64,000 nt of DNA from a virus. Its lineage: Duplodnaviria; Caudoviricetes. The stretch lies in IMG/VR virus record IMGVR_UViG_3300014208_000023, positions 224,001 through 288,000 of that record. The stretch is one strand, 5' to 3'. Each line of letters begins with the position of its first letter. The stretch's first letter is position 1. Both the position numbers and the translations under genes were made by a program. The notes under the pieces are model-generated. The model worked only from the letters and a program-made list of their open reading frames with translations. It made no database searches and was not told the DNA's origin. Positions 16,930 to 25,264 of this stretch are shown here, piece by piece.

Positions 16930-17069
16930 TTGTTCCTATTATTATGCTACAAAATTGTAAGCCTATCTTACGCATAATAATATATCAATGGTTTTAAATT
17001 ATGAGTATAATCAACACATTAGATTGCAATCATTTTTTTGAGCATTAGATATTCTATAATATCATATAC

Positions 17070-17816
17070 TTACGACAGGCTCCTTATAAACTCTTTTGCG
17101 CGATCTCCTTCAGATTCTAAAAATTGATCAAGATCTTTATATCCATCTGGCAAACAGGCTTTTGTTATATTTGCCCTCTTACCATAGTTAGAAACAATTC
17201 TATCCATCCCCGCAATACCAGCCTTATCATTGTCAAGCAACAGAATGATATTGTCCGTATAACGCATTAGCATTGCAAATTGATTAAAGGCCATATTTCC
17301 TGAGCCTAAACAAACGCAATTTTCAATTCCATTGCTCATGGCTCGTATGCAGTCAAACTGGCCCTCTACAACATATACGCAATTTTCTTTTACTATAGCT
17401 GGCTTTGCTCTATATAGTCCAAATAAATGATTCTTTTTCTTAAATGATGTATTTTTATACTTTGATATATTCGCAGTCTTAAACTCATTGTCTCCAAGAA
17501 TAGTTCTTCCAACTAATGCTATAGTTTTTCCATAAGCATTTTTATATGGCATAACCATATTATGATTTTCTAATACAGAAGCAAGAGCCATCTCTCCTTC
17601 TATAGATCTATAATAGAATAGTCCAGACTTAACTAAATTTTCTTCGCCAAGAATATTAACTAACAAATGTAAATTATCTGTGCTTGGAAAGTATCCCATT
17701 TCAAATTCTTTTTGAATGTTTTTGTCAAGCCTATTATCGAGATATTCCCTAACCGGTTCGGCATAAGGAAAATCAGTTAAAAGATTTTGACATATTTTAG
17801 TAACCTGGTCTAACAT
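17070..17816 (-). CDS. dnaG: DnaG primase catalytic core (Toprim), lacking zinc-binding and helicase-binding domains
   Basis: EYLDNR...EFEMGYFP, IALVGR, SKYKNT, LFGLY, VVEGQFD, LLLDNDKAG. Confidence 0.85.
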   Translation of the reverse strand: MLDQVTKICQNLLTDFPYAEPVREYLDNRLDKNIQKEFEMGYFPSTDNLHLLVNILGEENLVKSGLFYYRSIEGEMALASVLENHNMVMPYKNAYGKTIALVGRTILGDNEFKTANISKYKNTSFKKKNHLFGLYRAKPAIVKENCVYVVEGQFDCIRAMSNGIENCVCLGSGNMAFNQFAMLMRYTDNIILLLDNDKAGIAGMDRIVSNYGKRANITKACLPDGYKDLDQFLESEGDRAKEFIRSLS

Positions 17817-17848: not shown

Positions 17849-17854
17849 TATAAT
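17849..17854 (+). promoter_or_regulatory. Perfect -10 hexamer TATAAT 5 nt upstream of ATG 17860 (possible leaderless promoter of plus-strand cassette)
   Basis: AAAG-TATAAT-TGAGT-ATG; no clear -35. Confidence 0.45.
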
Positions 17855-17859
17855 TGAGT

Positions 17860-19341
17860 ATGACTAGTCAATATCCTGCCAAAATAGACGACAACATAAC
17901 TTTACCCGTGTCGCTAGATAATTCTACTTTGGTTAGAGCCAATGTTTTAAATGACCTTCGTGGGGCAATTATAGCAATTGAATCTGCTATGGGTGTAAAT
18001 CCAGCATCAGTATATGGGACAGTTAGGGAGCGGCTAAACACTATCGAAAATGCTTTAACTAGCATTACCATTGGTGGTGGTGGAATTACTGTTGGCGGGG
18101 ATCTGTCCGGCTCATCTATATCACAGATCGTAGTGGGTTTGCAGGGCAATGCGATTTCTAATATCAGCCCGACAGACGGTTATGTTCTCACTTGGAAATC
18201 ATCCACTAGTAAATGGACGCCCTCTTCTGCGGCAAGTGGGTTCGCTGCCGGTGGAGATTTAACGGGGTCATCAACATCACAGCAAGTTATTTCTTTAACC
18301 GGATCTGCCGGAGTAGTTTCAGTGCCAACAGCATCAATTGCTTTTAATACAATTCCAGCAACTTCTGGAGATATTAGGTTATCTAACATTTCAAGCATAC
18401 AATCACGTACATTCGTTGATAATGCCAATATTATTATGATGGCTACCGATGCTACAGATTCATTATTTATTGGAACTAATAATTCTTGGACAGAACAAAC
18501 AATTGGCCTTAATATGTATGCAAGCTCTACTGTTGCATTGGGTCTTGGAGCACTAACTCACTTATATATTATTTCAGGATTTACAGAATCTTGGGTACCC
18601 ATTATTGGTAGTGGTACAGGATCTTCACCATACGGTGTTCATGGCGTTGGTACTCAAGCAATGGCTGATGCCAACCAAACACCAGCAAGTACAATTTATC
18701 AGTATAATACAATAGTAACTACTGACGCAATTACTGCCAATAGAACATTAACATTACCAACTGCAACAGATGTTGCTGGCTATACTAAAATAATAGATAA
18801 TACTTGTGCCGGAGCATTTGCAGTTGTAGTAACTACTGGCGCTGGAGTAACGGCAACCATCAATAATGGAACCAAAGGAATTGTTCTTATTGATTCTAGA
18901 GGCGTTACATTAGTAGGTGCTCCAACATTACCAACAAGATATGAATTGAATCTTGCATCTGGATTGTTTTCTACTACATCCACTACTTTTACCAGGACTG
19001 GTGGCAGACAAATTGATATGAGTATTTTCCCGGCAACAATTGGAGCATTAGCTAGAACCGTAGCATTCTCGGCAGATATTGATATGACGGCCGGAGCTAC
19101 TTCCGTTGAAATTCAATTATATGATATTACTCATAGCGTGGCAGTAACAAGTACGGATTTAACATCCTCATCAACAACCAATACAAGAGTGACAAGTGGG
19201 TCATTAACCGTTGGATCTTCGGCCGGAAATATTAGAAGTGATGTCGCGACTCAATATGAGTTACAATTTAAAATGAATGGCGGAGGAGGATCTGATGCAG
19301 TATTCCTTACAAATTCAAGATTGGTTATCACATATGCATAA
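17860..19341 (+). CDS. Putative virion fibre/decoration protein
   Basis: N-terminal YPAKID...NVLNDLRGAIIAIESAMG anchor-like segment, two GGDL(S/T)GS repeats, Thr/Ser/Gly-rich beta composition; ATG at 17860. Confidence 0.6.
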   Translation: MTSQYPAKIDDNITLPVSLDNSTLVRANVLNDLRGAIIAIESAMGVNPASVYGTVRERLNTIENALTSITIGGGGITVGGDLSGSSISQIVVGLQGNAISNISPTDGYVLTWKSSTSKWTPSSAASGFAAGGDLTGSSTSQQVISLTGSAGVVSVPTASIAFNTIPATSGDIRLSNISSIQSRTFVDNANIIMMATDATDSLFIGTNNSWTEQTIGLNMYASSTVALGLGALTHLYIISGFTESWVPIIGSGTGSSPYGVHGVGTQAMADANQTPASTIYQYNTIVTTDAITANRTLTLPTATDVAGYTKIIDNTCAGAFAVVVTTGAGVTATINNGTKGIVLIDSRGVTLVGAPTLPTRYELNLASGLFSTTSTTFTRTGGRQIDMSIFPATIGALARTVAFSADIDMTAGATSVEIQLYDITHSVAVTSTDLTSSSTTNTRVTSGSLTVGSSAGNIRSDVATQYELQFKMNGGGGSDAVFLTNSRLVITYA

Positions 19342-19368
19342 TAAAATAATTGTTAAAGGAATATTATA

Positions 19369-20379
19369 ATGGCATATACCTTTTCAGTAAATAATACTCC
19401 ATTAACAGGCGCTGTAGCCATGTACCAATTAGTATCTGCGCTTATGTCGGCTGGCTGGCTTAAGAAAATGGATTCTGATGGCACTACTTATAGTGCTACT
19501 GGTGTTCAAGTAACCTCTGGGGCATCTGGGGCTAATGGTTTGGGTAATTCTAATGCTTGGGTTAGACTGCAGGCCCCACCAGTTAATGGCGGAACAATAG
19601 TAAATCAAACTAGAGAGCTAACTATTCAAAGAGGTACTACTGATTTAGTATGGAGAATTAAGTACTCAGCATCTGCATTATTTACTGGAGGTACTCCAGG
19701 CATTTCCCAAACACCATTATCAACAGATGAGGTTTTTATGGCAGGCGGTGGTACCAATGCTTCCCCAACATTCTTATCAATGTTTCTTACAAATAATACT
19801 TATGTTTGGCATATTGCTGCTGGAGACTCTAACGAATTTTATTCTTTTGTTGTTTGGGGAAATCTATTTGGAACTGCTGGCATAACAAACGTTAATGCAA
19901 TTGCAATTGATGTTTTGGCTGCTGGAAGTTATCCGGCAACAGATGTCGATCCCGCCGTAATTTATTTACAAACTTCCAGCGCTTTTGCAACTATAGTTTC
20001 TTCTGGATTTACAACTACTAATGTAACCAATCCATGTGTAGCTAGGGGCTGGATGGGCGCAACTAGCGCTGTAGGCGCATCAACAAGCTCAAATAATCAA
20101 AATATGAATATATCTACTTATGGTACTGCGTTAGGCATGCTACAAAACAGTAATGGCTCAGATCCTTGGACAAATAGCGATCAGCTTTTGCCATGTTTAT
20201 GGGGCTGCAATACAACGGCAACTCCTAAAGGAGTAAAGGGATTTTCTACACTATTTAGGATGGGAACTATTTATAGATATAATAGCGACATGTGCAGTAC
20301 TGTCGTTGGAGGCCTTTCAGATAAAATTTACGTTAATGGGCTTTGGTTACCATGGAGCGGCGTGAAGCCGATAAGGTAA
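19369..20379 (+). CDS. Paralogous array protein 1 (putative virion structural/receptor-binding)
   Basis: Shared MAYTF.VN.TP...AGW...DSDG...WRIKYS...DEV...DPAV...WLPWSG framework. Confidence 0.75.
   Translation: MAYTFSVNNTPLTGAVAMYQLVSALMSAGWLKKMDSDGTTYSATGVQVTSGASGANGLGNSNAWVRLQAPPVNGGTIVNQTRELTIQRGTTDLVWRIKYSASALFTGGTPGISQTPLSTDEVFMAGGGTNASPTFLSMFLTNNTYVWHIAAGDSNEFYSFVVWGNLFGTAGITNVNAIAIDVLAAGSYPATDVDPAVIYLQTSSAFATIVSSGFTTTNVTNPCVARGWMGATSAVGASTSSNNQNMNISTYGTALGMLQNSNGSDPWTNSDQLLPCLWGCNTTATPKGVKGFSTLFRMGTIYRYNSDMCSTVVGGLSDKIYVNGLWLPWSGVKPIR
20348..20370 (+). repeat. Array junction element TACCATGGAGCGGC-N5-GCCG (copy 1)
   Basis: GGAG directly followed by CGGC-GTGAA-GCCG hairpin, 10 nt before ATG 20381. 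Confidence 0.8.
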
Positions 20380-20380
20380 A

Positions 20381-21400
20381 ATGGCATATACTTTTTCAAT
20401 AGCAAATACTCCCGCATCTGGCGCAGTTGCAATGTATCTTATTAAAACAACACTAGTAACGGCTGGATGGGCCGTTGTGGCTGATTCTGATGGATCTACT
20501 TATAATGCTACTGGGGGACAAGTAACTACTGGCGCAGCTGGTGCCGGTGGTCTTGGAAATGCTAATGCATGGATTCGTCTTCAAGCCCCAACAGTAGGAA
20601 GTAATACGAGAGAAATAACTATTCAAAGAGCAAATAGCGGAGTGGTTGCAACTGATGATCGCGCATGGAGAATTAAGTATTCTGCTAATGCGCATTTTAC
20701 CGGAGGCTCCCCAGGAGTCTCACAAACCGGATCGGCTACCGATGAAGTATTTATACTAGGGGGAGGAACTGACGCCTCTCCAACATTTACAGCAAGTTGG
20801 TTTGCGGCAAATGGCGGTTATCGTTGGCATATTGCTGCCGGTGGGGCTACTGAATTATATTCATTTTATGCGATTGCTCTTACGAGCGCAACCACTACTC
20901 AACAAAACGCAATGTTTCTTGATGTAATGGCGGCTGGAAGCTATTCTTCTTCTGACGTAGATCCAGCCGTAATGTATTGCTCTTCGGCTGCTGCAAGCGC
21001 AATAGGAATATCTGAAGTAATATCCAGCGCTTTTCCTATATCAGCCAACGTTACTAATCCTGCCCTAGCTAGGGCATGGCTTGGAGCAACAAGTGCGGCA
21101 GGCGCATCAATAACAAGTAACAGTGTAAATGTAAATATGGTTACTTATGGAAGTAATTTTGGAAATGCAACTTCACTTGCAGTAAATCCATTTAGCACCA
21201 AAGATACATTAGTATTTACTTTGTGGGGTAGAAAATGGGGAAGCAATCCTTATCCGCCAGCAGGAATCAAAGGAATTTCTACTTTATTTTTAACTGGATC
21301 TATGAGTAGAACGAATCTAGATACAAATCTTTCTCTAACTAAAATATGGTATGGAAAATTATGGTTACCCTGGGATGGCGTAACTACACCATCAGCATAA
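20381..21400 (+). CDS. Paralogous array protein 2
   Basis: Same framework; ends WLPWDG. Confidence 0.75.
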   Translation: MAYTFSIANTPASGAVAMYLIKTTLVTAGWAVVADSDGSTYNATGGQVTTGAAGAGGLGNANAWIRLQAPTVGSNTREITIQRANSGVVATDDRAWRIKYSANAHFTGGSPGVSQTGSATDEVFILGGGTDASPTFTASWFAANGGYRWHIAAGGATELYSFYAIALTSATTTQQNAMFLDVMAAGSYSSSDVDPAVMYCSSAAASAIGISEVISSAFPISANVTNPALARAWLGATSAAGASITSNSVNVNMVTYGSNFGNATSLAVNPFSTKDTLVFTLWGRKWGSNPYPPAGIKGISTLFLTGSMSRTNLDTNLSLTKIWYGKLWLPWDGVTTPSA

Positions 21401-21414
21401 TGGAAACAATATAA

Positions 21415-22941
21415 ATGGCATATACATTTTTAGTAAATCAAACTCCCTTAACCGGATCTGTAGCTATGTATCAGCTCATCAGTACTCTAATAACTGCTGG
21501 CTGGACTAAAGTTATGGACTCAGATGGTACAACATATAGTTCGTCAGGAGCGCAAGTTACTTCTGGAGCATCTGGAGCTAATGGTTTAGGAAATAATAAT
21601 GCTTGGGTACGTCTTGCAGCACCGGCGGTAAATGGTGGCTCTGTAGTTAATCAGACAAGAGAGTTAGTTATTCAAAGAACAAACGCAGATACGGCTTGGA
21701 GGATTAAATATTCTGCATCTGGAGGATTTGGAGGTGGCGCACCCGCTGCAACTATTTCTCCATCAAACCCAACCGCATATAGTTATCCAGAAACCAACCA
21801 AGATGCAACGACATCATTATATACTGGCGCAATTATTGGAACAGGCCAGTCTTTTACGGGAACTGGATCGGCAATAAGTACGACAAAATGGCATTTAAAA
21901 AAGACAGGGTCTCCTACTGGTTCCGCATTCGTTAAAATTTATGCTCATTCAGGGTCTCTTGGGACAACAAGCATACCAACTGGAACCGCTTTAGCCACTT
22001 CCAATGCATTTGATGTTTCAACATTATCTGGCGTTTATGCTTTAACAGAAATAAAATTTACAGGAGCCAATAATATTGTTTTGGCTAATGGGACCGATTA
22101 TGTTATAGCAATTGAATATTCTGCTGCAGGAAGCAGCATAACAACCAGCTTAGATGTTGGTGGAGACGGATCTTCTCCTACTGCAACCGGTAACTCATCA
22201 ACGCTTACCGGATCTACTTGGACTGCGGTTAGCACTAGTGATTTATGCGCTATAGTTTATGTTGGACAACAGGATGAAGTATTAATGGCTGGAGCAGGTA
22301 CCGATGCTATACCAACCGGAACGGCAGGATGGTTTGCTACTAATAATACTTATCGTTGGCATATTGTTGCTGGTGGAGCGGCAGAGTTTTATTCATTTGT
22401 TGCTTGGGGAACAGATAGTGGAACAACATCGTCACAAGGAAATGCAATAGCTTTAGATATTATGCAAACAGGAAGCTATCCATCTACTGATCCTGATCCT
22501 GCCGTTATGTATGTTTCTCCTGCCTGGAATAATAATCCTTTCTCATCAATCATGTCAACAATATTTGTGTCGGCCTGGTCTACTAATCCGGCCAATGCAA
22601 GAGCTTGGTTAGGCCCCACAAGCAACGTTGGGGCATCAATAACTTCAGGAATTAATAGCGTTAATGTAACAATGATAAGTTTTGGTTCTTTTAGTGGCGC
22701 ATCAGCCGCATCATTAGGAACTAATCCCTGGACTACTAATGATGATATTTTACATTGTGTGTGGGGCTGTTTAAATTCATCTATACCGCGCGGGGTAAAA
22801 GGTATTTCCACCATTTTTAGAGCACCAACTATGGTTAGAAGATACATGGATACATATAATACCATATCTCCAGGGTCTAAAGATATAATTAATTTTAATC
22901 AAGTTTGCTTACCATGGAGCGGCGCGACGCCGATCATTTAA
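21415..22941 (+). CDS. Paralogous array protein 3 with ~167-aa inserted beta domain
   Basis: Same framework split by an insertion at about aa 118-284. Confidence 0.75.
   Translation: MAYTFLVNQTPLTGSVAMYQLISTLITAGWTKVMDSDGTTYSSSGAQVTSGASGANGLGNNNAWVRLAAPAVNGGSVVNQTRELVIQRTNADTAWRIKYSASGGFGGGAPAATISPSNPTAYSYPETNQDATTSLYTGAIIGTGQSFTGTGSAISTTKWHLKKTGSPTGSAFVKIYAHSGSLGTTSIPTGTALATSNAFDVSTLSGVYALTEIKFTGANNIVLANGTDYVIAIEYSAAGSSITTSLDVGGDGSSPTATGNSSTLTGSTWTAVSTSDLCAIVYVGQQDEVLMAGAGTDAIPTGTAGWFATNNTYRWHIVAGGAAEFYSFVAWGTDSGTTSSQGNAIALDIMQTGSYPSTDPDPAVMYVSPAWNNNPFSSIMSTIFVSAWSTNPANARAWLGPTSNVGASITSGINSVNVTMISFGSFSGASAASLGTNPWTTNDDILHCVWGCLNSSIPRGVKGISTIFRAPTMVRRYMDTYNTISPGSKDIINFNQVCLPWSGATPII
22910..22932 (+). 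repeat. Array junction element (copy 2)
   Basis: TACCATGGAG-CGGC-GCGAC-GCCG, 8 nt before ATG 22941. Confidence 0.8.
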
Positions 22942-23960
22942 TGTCTTATATCTTTTCAGTAAATAATACTCCAGCGACTGGCGCTATTGCTATGTATCAA
23001 CTCATCAGTACTCTAATAACTGCTGGCTGGACTAAAGTAATGGATTCTGATGGTACCATTTATAGCGCTTCTGGAGCTCAAGTTACTTCTGGTAATACCG
23101 GATATACGGGATTAGATAACTCTAATGCTTGGATTAGATTACGCGCTCCCGCAGTTCTTAAAGGTGGGGCGGTCGCAAATCAAACAAGAGAAATAACTTT
23201 TCAAAGAGGAACTACTCAAGTTGCATGGAGAGTTAAATACTCTGCTTCGGCTGGTTTTTCAGGAGGATCTCCAGCAACTACAGTAACGCCATCATCTACT
23301 GATGAGGTATTTATGTTAGGAGGCGGCACAGATGCCTCTCCAACATTTAACAGTTGGTTTAGCACTCTTAATACTTATAATTGGCATATTATTGCTGGAG
23401 GATCAGATGAATATTATTCTTTTGCCGCATGGGCTATGGCAAAAGGACAGACAGCTTCATCAGGAAATATGATAGCCTTAGATGTTATGGCATTAGGAAG
23501 CTATCCCTCTATAGATGTTGATCCTGCAGTTATGTTTTGCTCAACCGCCGGAACATCATCTACTACCGATTTAACCTCGGCATTATTTGCTGCATCTACG
23601 GTAACTAATCCGTCTTTAGCTAGGGCCTGGTTTGGATCCACAAGCGCAGCTGGTGCCGCTGTTACTGGAACAAATAATGTAAATGTTCAAATGATTACTT
23701 ATGGTTCCGGAACAATTGGAAATTCTGGAACATTAGGAACTAATCCATGGACAAATGATGATGATTTGCTTCCATGTCTATGGGGAAATGCCGCAACCCT
23801 TGGGCCTCGTGGTATTAAAGGGTTTTCTACTTTATTTTTAGTAGGATCAGTTAATAGAAAAAATATGGATACATGTGATTTTTCTTATACTGGCGCTAAA
23901 GATAAGGTTTATTTTAATCAATTCTGGCTACCATGGAGCGGCGTTACGCCGGCAATATAA
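22941..23960 (+). CDS. Paralogous array protein 4
   Basis: Start corrected to ATG 22941 (TAATG overlap; MSYIFSVNNTP aligns with paralog N-termini), 339 aa. Confidence 0.75.
   Translation: MSYIFSVNNTPATGAIAMYQLISTLITAGWTKVMDSDGTIYSASGAQVTSGNTGYTGLDNSNAWIRLRAPAVLKGGAVANQTREITFQRGTTQVAWRVKYSASAGFSGGSPATTVTPSSTDEVFMLGGGTDASPTFNSWFSTLNTYNWHIIAGGSDEYYSFAAWAMAKGQTASSGNMIALDVMALGSYPSIDVDPAVMFCSTAGTSSTTDLTSALFAASTVTNPSLARAWFGSTSAAGAAVTGTNNVNVQMITYGSGTIGNSGTLGTNPWTNDDDLLPCLWGNAATLGPRGIKGFSTLFLVGSVNRKNMDTCDFSYTGAKDKVYFNQFWLPWSGVTPAI
23929..23951 (+). repeat. Array junction element (copy 3)
   Basis: TACCATGGAG-CGGC-GTTAC-GCCG, 10 nt before ATG 23962. Confidence 0.8.
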
Positions 23961-23961
23961 A

Positions 23962-24963
23962 ATGTCATATACCTTTTCAGTGAATAATAGCCCGCTTACT
24001 GGCGCCGTGGCAATTTATCAATTAATAACGGCATTAACTACTGCCGGCTGGATTAGGCAAGCAGATTCTGATGGCAGCACTTATAACGCTGCTGGAGGAC
24101 AAGTAACTTCAGGTAATACTGGAACTAATGGGCTAGATAATCCTAATGCATGGATTAGGATGCAAGCACCAACAGTTGGAAGTAATACAAGAGAATTAAC
24201 CTTTCAAAGAGGAGCGTCCAATCTTGGATGGAGAATTAAATATTCTGCTAACGCTCATTTTACAGGTGGCTCGCCAGGAGTTTCTCAAACAGGGTCTGCT
24301 ACTGATGAGGTATTTATGACTGGCGGTGGAACCGACGCTTCTCCAACATTTACTACTAATTTTATGAGTGCGAATAATTCATATCATTGGCATATAGTGA
24401 CAGGTGGGGCGGCAGAGTTTTATTCATTTGCTGTTTGGGGAGCTGTAAATGGCACCTCTACATCAGCTTCTGGCATGTGTCTTGACGTAATGGCAGCTGG
24501 AAGCTATCCTGCAGCAGATGTAGATCCTGCAGTTATGTATTGTTCTTCATCTACTATTGGCGTATTTTCAGAAGTATATTCTACCTCAACATTAGCCTCA
24601 GTTAATGTGACCAACCCAGCCCAAGCAAGAGCGTGGTTGGGCGCTACTAGCGCCGCAGGTGCGTCATTAACAAGCACCAACGTGAATGTTAGCATGGTTA
24701 CTTACGGAGCAAATCAAATGGGAGCCACAGTAACTATAGGCACTAATCCCTTTACAAATAAAGATGATTTATTTCCCATGATATGGGGATCAGGTTTTAC
24801 CGGTTTTCCGCGTGGACTAAAAGGATTCTCTACATTATTTATGTGCGGAACTATACAGAGAAGAAATATGACAACAGCAGATACTATCAGTTCAAATTCT
24901 AGAGATAGAATTTTTATGAATGGCGTTTGGATACCATGGAGCGGCACCAAGCCGGCAATATAA
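23962..24963 (+). CDS. Paralogous array protein 5
   Basis: Start corrected to ATG 23962 (MSYTFSVNNSP), 333 aa. Confidence 0.75.
   Translation: MSYTFSVNNSPLTGAVAIYQLITALTTAGWIRQADSDGSTYNAAGGQVTSGNTGTNGLDNPNAWIRMQAPTVGSNTRELTFQRGASNLGWRIKYSANAHFTGGSPGVSQTGSATDEVFMTGGGTDASPTFTTNFMSANNSYHWHIVTGGAAEFYSFAVWGAVNGTSTSASGMCLDVMAAGSYPAADVDPAVMYCSSSTIGVFSEVYSTSTLASVNVTNPAQARAWLGATSAAGASLTSTNVNVSMVTYGANQMGATVTIGTNPFTNKDDLFPMIWGSGFTGFPRGLKGFSTLFMCGTIQRRNMTTADTISSNSRDRIFMNGVWIPWSGTKPAI
24932..24954 (+). repeat. Array junction element (copy 4)
   Basis: TACCATGGAG-CGGC-ACCAA-GCCG, 10 nt before ATG 24965. Confidence 0.8.
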
Positions 24964-24964
24964 A

Positions 24965-25264
24965 ATGACAGTATTTACAGGAGAAGTATTTATAGCGCCA
25001 GCAATAGCGTTTGCCAACATAGATGGATATGGAGAATTCTTATCATATGTGCAACAAACTAATGCAAATCAAGATGGATATGGAGCTCCAAAATTTACAG
25101 CAATAGCATCATCAAACATTAACCCAATTCCACATTATAAGTTGTCATGCGAAGACAATACTGGATTAAGGCATTATTGGGTAGATACTAGCGTTTCTTT
25201 AATTAATGCTCCGGCAGGATTTACCTATGTAATAGGCACATTCGTTAATCAGGGCAAATTCTAG
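24965..25264 (+). CDS. Small hypothetical protein closing the plus-strand cassette
   Basis: Start corrected to ATG 24965 (MTVFTGEV), 99 aa; preceded by the same junction element as array genes. Confidence 0.65.
   Translation: MTVFTGEVFIAPAIAFANIDGYGEFLSYVQQTNANQDGYGAPKFTAIASSNINPIPHYKLSCEDNTGLRHYWVDTSVSLINAPAGFTYVIGTFVNQGKF

Follow-up and report, generated by a model that had tools for sequence, protein, structure and literature searches.

Few split Shine-Dalgarno (SD) sites bridged by a hairpin have, to our knowledge, been characterized, mainly those of genes 25 and 38 of phage T4; the split site with its bridging hairpin at the T4 gene 26-25 junction was reportedly described by Nivinskas et al. 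in 1999 and by Malys and Nivinskas in 2009. The hairpin cuts the spacing between SD and AUG from 22 to 5 nt in front of gene 38 and from 27 to 11 nt in front of gene 25 (PMC3014915). Both sites were validated by mutation and probing, destabilizing the structure lowers initiation, and the split-site structure is kept among close T-even phages (PMC3014915). Here we analyze an element of similar layout that recurs at four gene junctions of a paralog array in a virus of the Caudoviricetes (IMG/VR record IMGVR_UViG_3300014208_000023). The record comprises 428,320 bp with direct terminal repeats and ~40% G+C. The window, i.e. the whole stretch of 64,000 nt that was analyzed, corresponds to its bases 224001–288000; positions below refer to the window unless stated otherwise.

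The element consists of a GGAG followed by a small hairpin and ends shortly before the stop codon of the upstream gene. We consider it fairly likely that it acts as a hairpin-bridged split SD for the next cistron, probably combined with termination-reinitiation at the abutting stop. This reading is supported by selection at the nucleotide level, by the tie of the element to junctions lacking another SD, by the normal SD spacing of this phage and by the layout of the T4 gene 26-25 junction.

According to this proposal, each upstream paralog with the element would contain a split ribosome-binding site within its 3′ terminal codons. The Trp-Ser codons TGG AGC would provide the GGAG as SD core, and the next 13 nt, made up of the third base of the Ser codon, the Gly codon, two variable codons and the Pro codon, would form a hairpin of 4 bp with a loop of 5 nt. 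The path from GGAG to AUG would thus become shorter, 8–10 instead of 21–23 nt, so that a 30S subunit or a just-terminated ribosome could engage the next start. The hairpin is thereby expected to form in vivo and the GGAG to pair with 16S rRNA at the four junctions, and the element may keep the expression of co-assembling paralogs coordinated.

Results

Sequence and geometry of the junction element

The pattern GGAGCGGC-N5-GCCG has four exact matches on the + strand, at 20354, 22916, 23935 and 24938, and none in 100 dinucleotide-preserving shuffles. An earlier note on this DNA had placed the elements at 20348, 22910, 23929 and 24932, which agrees with our positions when the preceding TACCAT is included. 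The matches sit within the last ten codons of paralogs 1, 3, 4 and 5, i.e. of four of the five paralogs, and are coding: TTA/CTA/ATA CCA TGG AGC GGC nnn nnG CCG is translated as L/I-P-W-S-G-x-x-P, followed by two codons and the stop.

At junction 1 (20354–20370, + strand), the GGAG at 20354–20357 is followed by the hairpin CGGC-GTGAA-GCCG at 20358–20370, and the next ATG is at 20381. Junction 3 (22916–22932, +) has the GGAG and the hairpin CGGC-GCGAC-GCCG in front of the ATG at 22941, junction 4 (23935–23951, +) the GGAG and CGGC-GTTAC-GCCG in front of the ATG at 23962, and junction 5 (24938–24954, +) the GGAG and CGGC-ACCAA-GCCG in front of the ATG at 24965. All four loops differ from each other, as the earlier note had read them. 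A proximal SD is lacking at junctions 3, 4 and 5, where only AU-rich sequence extends from the hairpin to the ATG.

At junctions 1, 3, 4 and 5, respectively, the next ATG is 23, 21, 23 and 23 nt away from the end of the GGAG and 10, 8, 10 and 10 nt away from the last base of the hairpin, which bears out the distances of 21–23 nt before and 8–10 nt after folding given previously. The linear distance exceeds the ~15 nt limit for normal initiation, as is characteristic of a split site, and the 8–10 nt left by the folded 13-nt hairpin lie inside the functional range of ~5–11 nt. Throughout its genome, the phage normally uses an SD of the AAGGAG type, with the GGAG ending 4–8 nt before the ATG.

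The T4 gene 26-25 junction, read in its sequence, has a GAGG within the last codons of gene 26 and then a hairpin of 7 bp; the distance is 27 nt, and stop and start overlap as TAATG. Both systems have the SD core in the last codons of an upstream structural gene and far from the AUG (27 vs 21–23 nt), an intervening hairpin that leaves about 8–11 nt, a stop that abuts or overlaps the start (as TAATG both in T4 and at junction 3), and tail or baseplate genes that are served. They differ in that the T4 stem is single and has 7 bp and a 4-nt loop, whereas the element here has 4 bp and a 5-nt loop and occurs four times in one operon; unlike in T4, half of its stem is set by codons for Gly and Pro within a conserved peptide. 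Between the array and T4 gene 26 or 25 there is no homology in sequence or protein, and the T4 site is experimentally validated, while the element described here is known from sequence. Because it repeats along the paralog array, each duplicate would carry the start signal of the next gene.

The site of T4 gene 38 resembles the four junctions in its linear spacing (22 vs 21–23 nt), in its small bridging hairpin and in preceding a tail-fiber-related gene; its folded spacing is 5 nt, compared with 8–10 nt here. A further likeness is that to ordinary stop-start coupling. At all four junctions the next ATG follows 1 nt past the stop (TAA-N-ATG) or overlaps with it (TAATG), and because of this arrangement a terminating ribosome is delivered next to the start. 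Simple coupling, however, can do without a conserved hairpin upstream, and codon selection 7–23 nt before the stop is not expected from it.

Codon choice at the motif

We examined peptide conservation in 120 homologs of the family with 35–63% identity. The peptide W-[LAFI]-P-W-[SND]-G-x-x-P-x-[IL]-stop is kept in nearly all of them, and because of this conservation TGG, GGN and CCN are forced. The element might accordingly have no function as a nucleic acid and reflect the PWSGxxP peptide together with chance or inherited codon choice, considering that the peptide motif is near-universal in the family and, with the loop set aside, forces 8 of 12 motif bases. Its third positions speak against this.

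Paralogs 1, 3, 4 and 5 share 55 invariant fourfold-degenerate columns, six of which have the same codon in all four copies. Three of these six are the Pro, Gly and Pro of PWSGxxP, and the Ser codon AGC is common to the copies as well. Third-position identity peaks in the 10-codon window of the motif, with 0.85 compared with a gene median of 0.47. The absence of synonymous drift that the earlier note had reported thus holds.

For a broader test we used the arrays of relatives, namely the syntenic 430,963-bp phage L014/L015 plus other contigs and metagenome loci. Family members were found by a hidden Markov model and clustered at 85% nucleotide identity; the sample for the codon test consisted of 25 non-redundant PWSGxxP copies from AT-rich genomes, and the family's own codon use served as expectation. 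Ser is encoded by AGY in 23 of the 25 copies (expected fraction 0.26; tail 4e-12), Gly by GGC in 21 (expected fraction 0.22; tail 1e-10) and Pro by CCG in 21 (expected fraction 0.16; tail 1e-13). The codon before this Pro ends in G in 18 copies, compared with an expected count of 3.2 (tail 1e-11). As this codon specifies ten different amino acids, the protein does not dictate its terminal G. In the first loop codon, used as a control, the third base has no bias.

The codon biases, together with the unbiased loop, therefore point to selection on the GGAG bases and on the two stem pairs left free by the peptide. On the 3′ side of the stem, G is found rather than C, as expected from complementarity and not from plain GC enrichment. 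This choice of G and the unbiased loop codon also ruled out a 'GC clamp' or a rare-codon pause as the cause. The conservation at nucleotide level in homologous arrays on which the earlier interpretation depended is thereby found: in diverged relatives, GGAG and the two free pairs are maintained by codons that are strongly non-default. From these codon statistics, the case for selection at the nucleotide level is solid. A pure peptide constraint is strongly disfavored, with third positions this far from the codon usage of the family (1e-10 to 1e-13) and a bias that holds across lineages in which other synonymous sites are scrambled. The initial observation is confirmed and is stronger than a reading of the sequence alone could show.

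Pairing and folding of the stem

Compensated variants of the stem occur in the family. These are AGT GGC ... ACG CCA, corresponding to UGGC/GCCA, AGT GGT ... ACA CCG, corresponding to UGGU/ACCG, and AGC GGT ... GCA CCG, corresponding to CGGU/ACCG. Shuffling of partners among the sequences yielded p = 0.015 for the inner pair and, in the S class, p = 0.002 for both pairs. In an alignment of 28 sequences, 90% of the cells are paired, compared with 16–61% when the partners are slid, and the observed pairing values were reached by 2–3 of 500 shuffles. The predicted hairpins range from -4.9 to -7.0 kcal/mol, with GGAG and the AUG region unpaired in local folds; the hairpin of junction 1 has -5.7 kcal/mol, or -7.0 including dangling ends.

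Association of the element with the type of junction

We distinguished tight junctions, at which the next gene starts 0–4 nt after the stop, from spacer junctions, which possess their own AGGA/AAGG. The stem is intact at 23 of 28 tight junctions but at 2 of 9 spacer junctions (Fisher 0.002), and GGAG is present at 22 of 28 and 1 of 9, respectively (Fisher 0.0006). Among all PWSG copies seen, Ser is encoded by AGY at 30 of 31 tight junctions and at 1 of 5 spacer junctions (Fisher p = 0.0004); the remaining 4 of these 5, with an SD of their own, use TCN. This preference for AGY speaks specifically for GGAG, because for the stem alone every Ser codon with a final C would do. A folded hairpin would leave 8–10 nt at every tight junction of the paralog family. 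The contrast is also seen in a sister pair within one clade, in which L065_c1 has a tight junction and the element, whereas L024_c1 has a spacer, TCA and no element.

One junction of the array in the window lacks the element. Paralog 2, which belongs in our tree to an old D/N-class clade, lacks GGAG and hairpin, and a 14-nt intergenic spacer (TGGAAACAATATAA, 21401–21414, +) with its own GGAA follows before the ATG at 21415, in line with the earlier description of this junction. In relatives, orthologs of paralog 2 are followed by AGGAAATT or AAGGAATT spacers.

The selected bases might instead belong to a conserved RNA hairpin or motif with another role, in which the GGAG is not a distant SD brought near. 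Candidates are a pause before termination that favors reinitiation, a signal for mRNA processing or stability that equalizes the cistrons, or a site for a phage translational regulator. We regard this explanation as rather unlikely, but some findings fit it: the selection on nucleotides is solid, while pairing with 16S rRNA would be a further step, and at tight junctions, copies of the N/D class retain a stem of the UGGA/UCCG type in the absence of GGAG. Moreover, the hairpin is situated 7–19 nt before the stop and thus has to be melted by a terminating ribosome. The explanation leaves open why Ser is AGY at nearly all tight junctions and TCN at most junctions with their own SD. Furthermore, the covariance models of Rfam 15 gave no match with E up to 1 between positions 17000 and 26000, and a scan for terminators found none at the four sites, where 4-bp stems are followed by AU-mixed coding sequence, whereas an intrinsic terminator or attenuator would require a G+C-rich stem of 5 bp or more and a T-run behind it. 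A search of the genome for RegB, the RNase cutting at GGAG, yielded no match, but control genomes gave none either, so that this search is uninformative. Programmed frameshifting was ruled out, as there is no slippery heptamer before the hairpin and the hairpin is located upstream of the stop.

Variant junctions and genome-wide scans

Some last-copy paralogs in relatives end in PWSG-x-G-V-L-I or PWSGASVLI and have neither the Pro nor the stem (L021:8960-9000, L023:8960-9000 and L018:8955-8995). In these copies, a second GGAG is formed from GGA GTA or GGA GCG, 10–13 nt before the ATG, and may, as a linear variant, stand in for the arrangement with a hairpin. In the 431-kb relative L014, a D-class copy (L014:4941-4982) has a 4-nt spacer and a GGAG built from GGG AGC, which is displayed in the tetraloop of an 8-bp stem in the predicted fold. 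The second copy of L014 was considered as a re-invented, shifted pair of GGAG and hairpin and was rejected, because the minimum free energy structure loops out the GGAG and the distance is not shortened.

A genome-wide scan for starts with a distal SD and an intervening hairpin gave no further convincing case. One candidate in front of a 353-aa gene (G000:C1:210656-211717, - strand) was discarded since the GGAG itself pairs with CUCC. Upstream of this gene, outside the window, AGGAGGAG is followed by CCAGCUCUCC (G000:C1:211718-211745, -), an arrangement that resembles a hairpin sequestering the SD more than a split site. An exact scan for the junction pattern found 0 matches in viral contigs and 12 chance matches in genome contigs, all outside the family.

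Conservation of the joint and variation of the arrays

The earlier note had named a crossover or recognition site for array expansion as an alternative. In this case the element would be a joint at the DNA level for the duplication, loss and exchange of copies between phages. The gene end and the first 10 codons of the next gene are indeed the two most conserved 30-nt windows, with identities of 0.85 and 0.83 compared with a median of 0.66, and junctions 4 and 5 are identical at 31 of 36 nt. The arrays of relatives also vary, both in size, from 3 to 5 copies, and in composition, L014 having two long copies compared with one here. However, a recombination joint predicts neither the compensated stem variants nor the link to the presence or absence of a spacer SD. 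All five loop bases vary by copy while the flanking third positions are fixed, and drift at fourfold sites is normal in the 5′ ends of the genes. Moreover, in the tree the paralog classes form long-branched clades that are old and well supported, and for this reason there is no sign of recent homogenization. We do not favor such a joint and consider it improbable.

The paralog array and its products

The junctions belong to a cassette of seven + strand genes at 17854–25264, in a region that is otherwise coded on the - strand. Positive GC skew is confined to 18–26 kb, across this cassette. It begins with a gene of 495 aa (17854–19341, +; from the list of open reading frames and the sequence), just 5′ of which a promoter-like TTGACA-18-TAACAT lies at 17787–17816, identified by consensus match alone. 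A 27-nt spacer with an ordinary AAGGA ~8 nt before the ATG separates this gene from the five tandem paralogs. These are paralog 1 (19369–20379, +; 336 aa, C-terminus LPWSGVKPIR), paralog 2 (20381–21400, +; 339 aa, LPWDGVTTPSA), paralog 3 (21415–22941, +; 508 aa, LPWSGATPII), the stop of which overlaps the next start as TAATG, paralog 4 (22941–23960, +; 339 aa, LPWSGVTPAI) and paralog 5 (23962–24963, +; 333 aa, IPWSGTKPAI). The last gene (24965–25264, +), downstream of the junction 5 element, encodes 99 aa and is not a paralog; a small unannotated gene of 82–122 aa follows the paralog array in relatives too.

The five tandem paralogs have about 55% mutual amino acid identity; in the codon comparison, the figure for paralogs was about 55–60%. 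Compared with its siblings, paralog 3 has an extra insertion of ~170 aa, roughly at residues 126–295, and versions of 490–510 aa are also found in relatives.

The paralogs and the genes of 99 and 495 aa matched no family in Pfam or PHROGs, and blastn against the phage collection gave no match. We obtained an AlphaFold model of paralog 4 with a predicted local distance difference test (pLDDT) score of 91 and a predicted template modeling (pTM) score of 0.92. This model matches chain K of 8rk3 (Foldseek probability 0.99, template modeling score 0.46–0.48; VIA Z 17.1 over 250 residues, root-mean-square deviation 3.7, next entry Z 2.6). Paralog 4 thus shares its fold with this chain over most of its length, at a sequence identity of 14%. 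Weaker structural matches were chain G of 8rk3 and several 'virion structural proteins'. The entry 8rk3 is the baseplate structure of Pseudomonas phage JBD30, in which gp47 and gp48 have similar folds and form heterodimers that stack into lateral tail fibers (PMC11445458). In one relative, a Baseplate_J gene adjoins the paralog array. Judging from the model and this neighborhood, the array most likely encodes co-assembling building blocks of a fiber or baseplate.

Discussion

Several observations weigh against reading the element as a bridged SD. The two central G-C pairs of the stem follow of necessity from Gly (GGN) and Pro (CCN) in PW[SND]GxxP, so that only two of the four pairs are informative. 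Covariation is modest, with 3–4 compensated cases compared with 4–5 single mismatches, and RNAalifold recovers the hairpin with a covariation term of about 0. For the 42-nt junctions, the folding energy does not surpass that of dinucleotide shuffles (z = 0.3–0.6). The predicted stem is based on codon selection and a few compensations, not on thermodynamic excess. The junction-type counts include orthologous copies and, because the paralog classes are old clades, inherited states; they correspond to about 3–4 independent contrasts. PW[ND]G copies at tight junctions have no GGAG and just GGA or GGAA, so junctions can do without the full SD core. Junction 1 is the one ambiguous case, with an additional AAGG that lies 4 nt from the ATG and is thus nearer to it than the usual 5–9 nt. 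Finally, the AU-rich stretch before the ATG and the overlap of stop and start might suffice for reinitiation.

The about three or four independent contrasts run in the predicted direction. The idea of a structure-assisted ribosome-binding site, put forward in the earlier note, has gained from the codon selection, the compensations, the tie to junctions without another SD and the SD spacing of the phage; it has lost in that the stem is less free than it appeared, with two of its pairs forced, and in that folding does not rise above that of shuffles. In our view a hairpin-bridged split SD is nevertheless the most likely mechanism at these junctions.

The earlier note went further and proposed that the element may set the stoichiometry of the subunits, a role that is speculative. 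Coordinated translation is plausible because the paralogs likely co-assemble in a fiber or baseplate, and the heterodimers of gp47 and gp48 in JBD30 illustrate a reason why paralogs would be expressed in a coordinated way. In JBD30 two proteins are involved, compared with five paralogs here, in a phage of more than 400 kb.

A further suggestion, to which we give only little weight, is that the junction is a portable module, in which the C-terminal codons of each paralog carry the ribosome-binding site for whatever gene follows. If this were true, duplication, loss or swap at the ~50-nt joint between a gene end and the next start would at once yield a correctly expressed array. One element would then be both a split SD and the joint that lets arrays vary between 3 and 5 copies and mix long and short versions.

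For gene callers and the designers of expression constructs, the element is a caution that start signals may lie at least 20 nt upstream, inside the preceding gene. With four uses in one operon, long held by synonymous choice inside a protein motif, it would cleanly exemplify dual coding, with constraints on protein and RNA that overlap. The case suggests that the solution seen in T4 also arose in unrelated, uncultured phages of more than 400 kb, and it may provide a handle on how phages keep co-assembling fiber paralogs expressed together.

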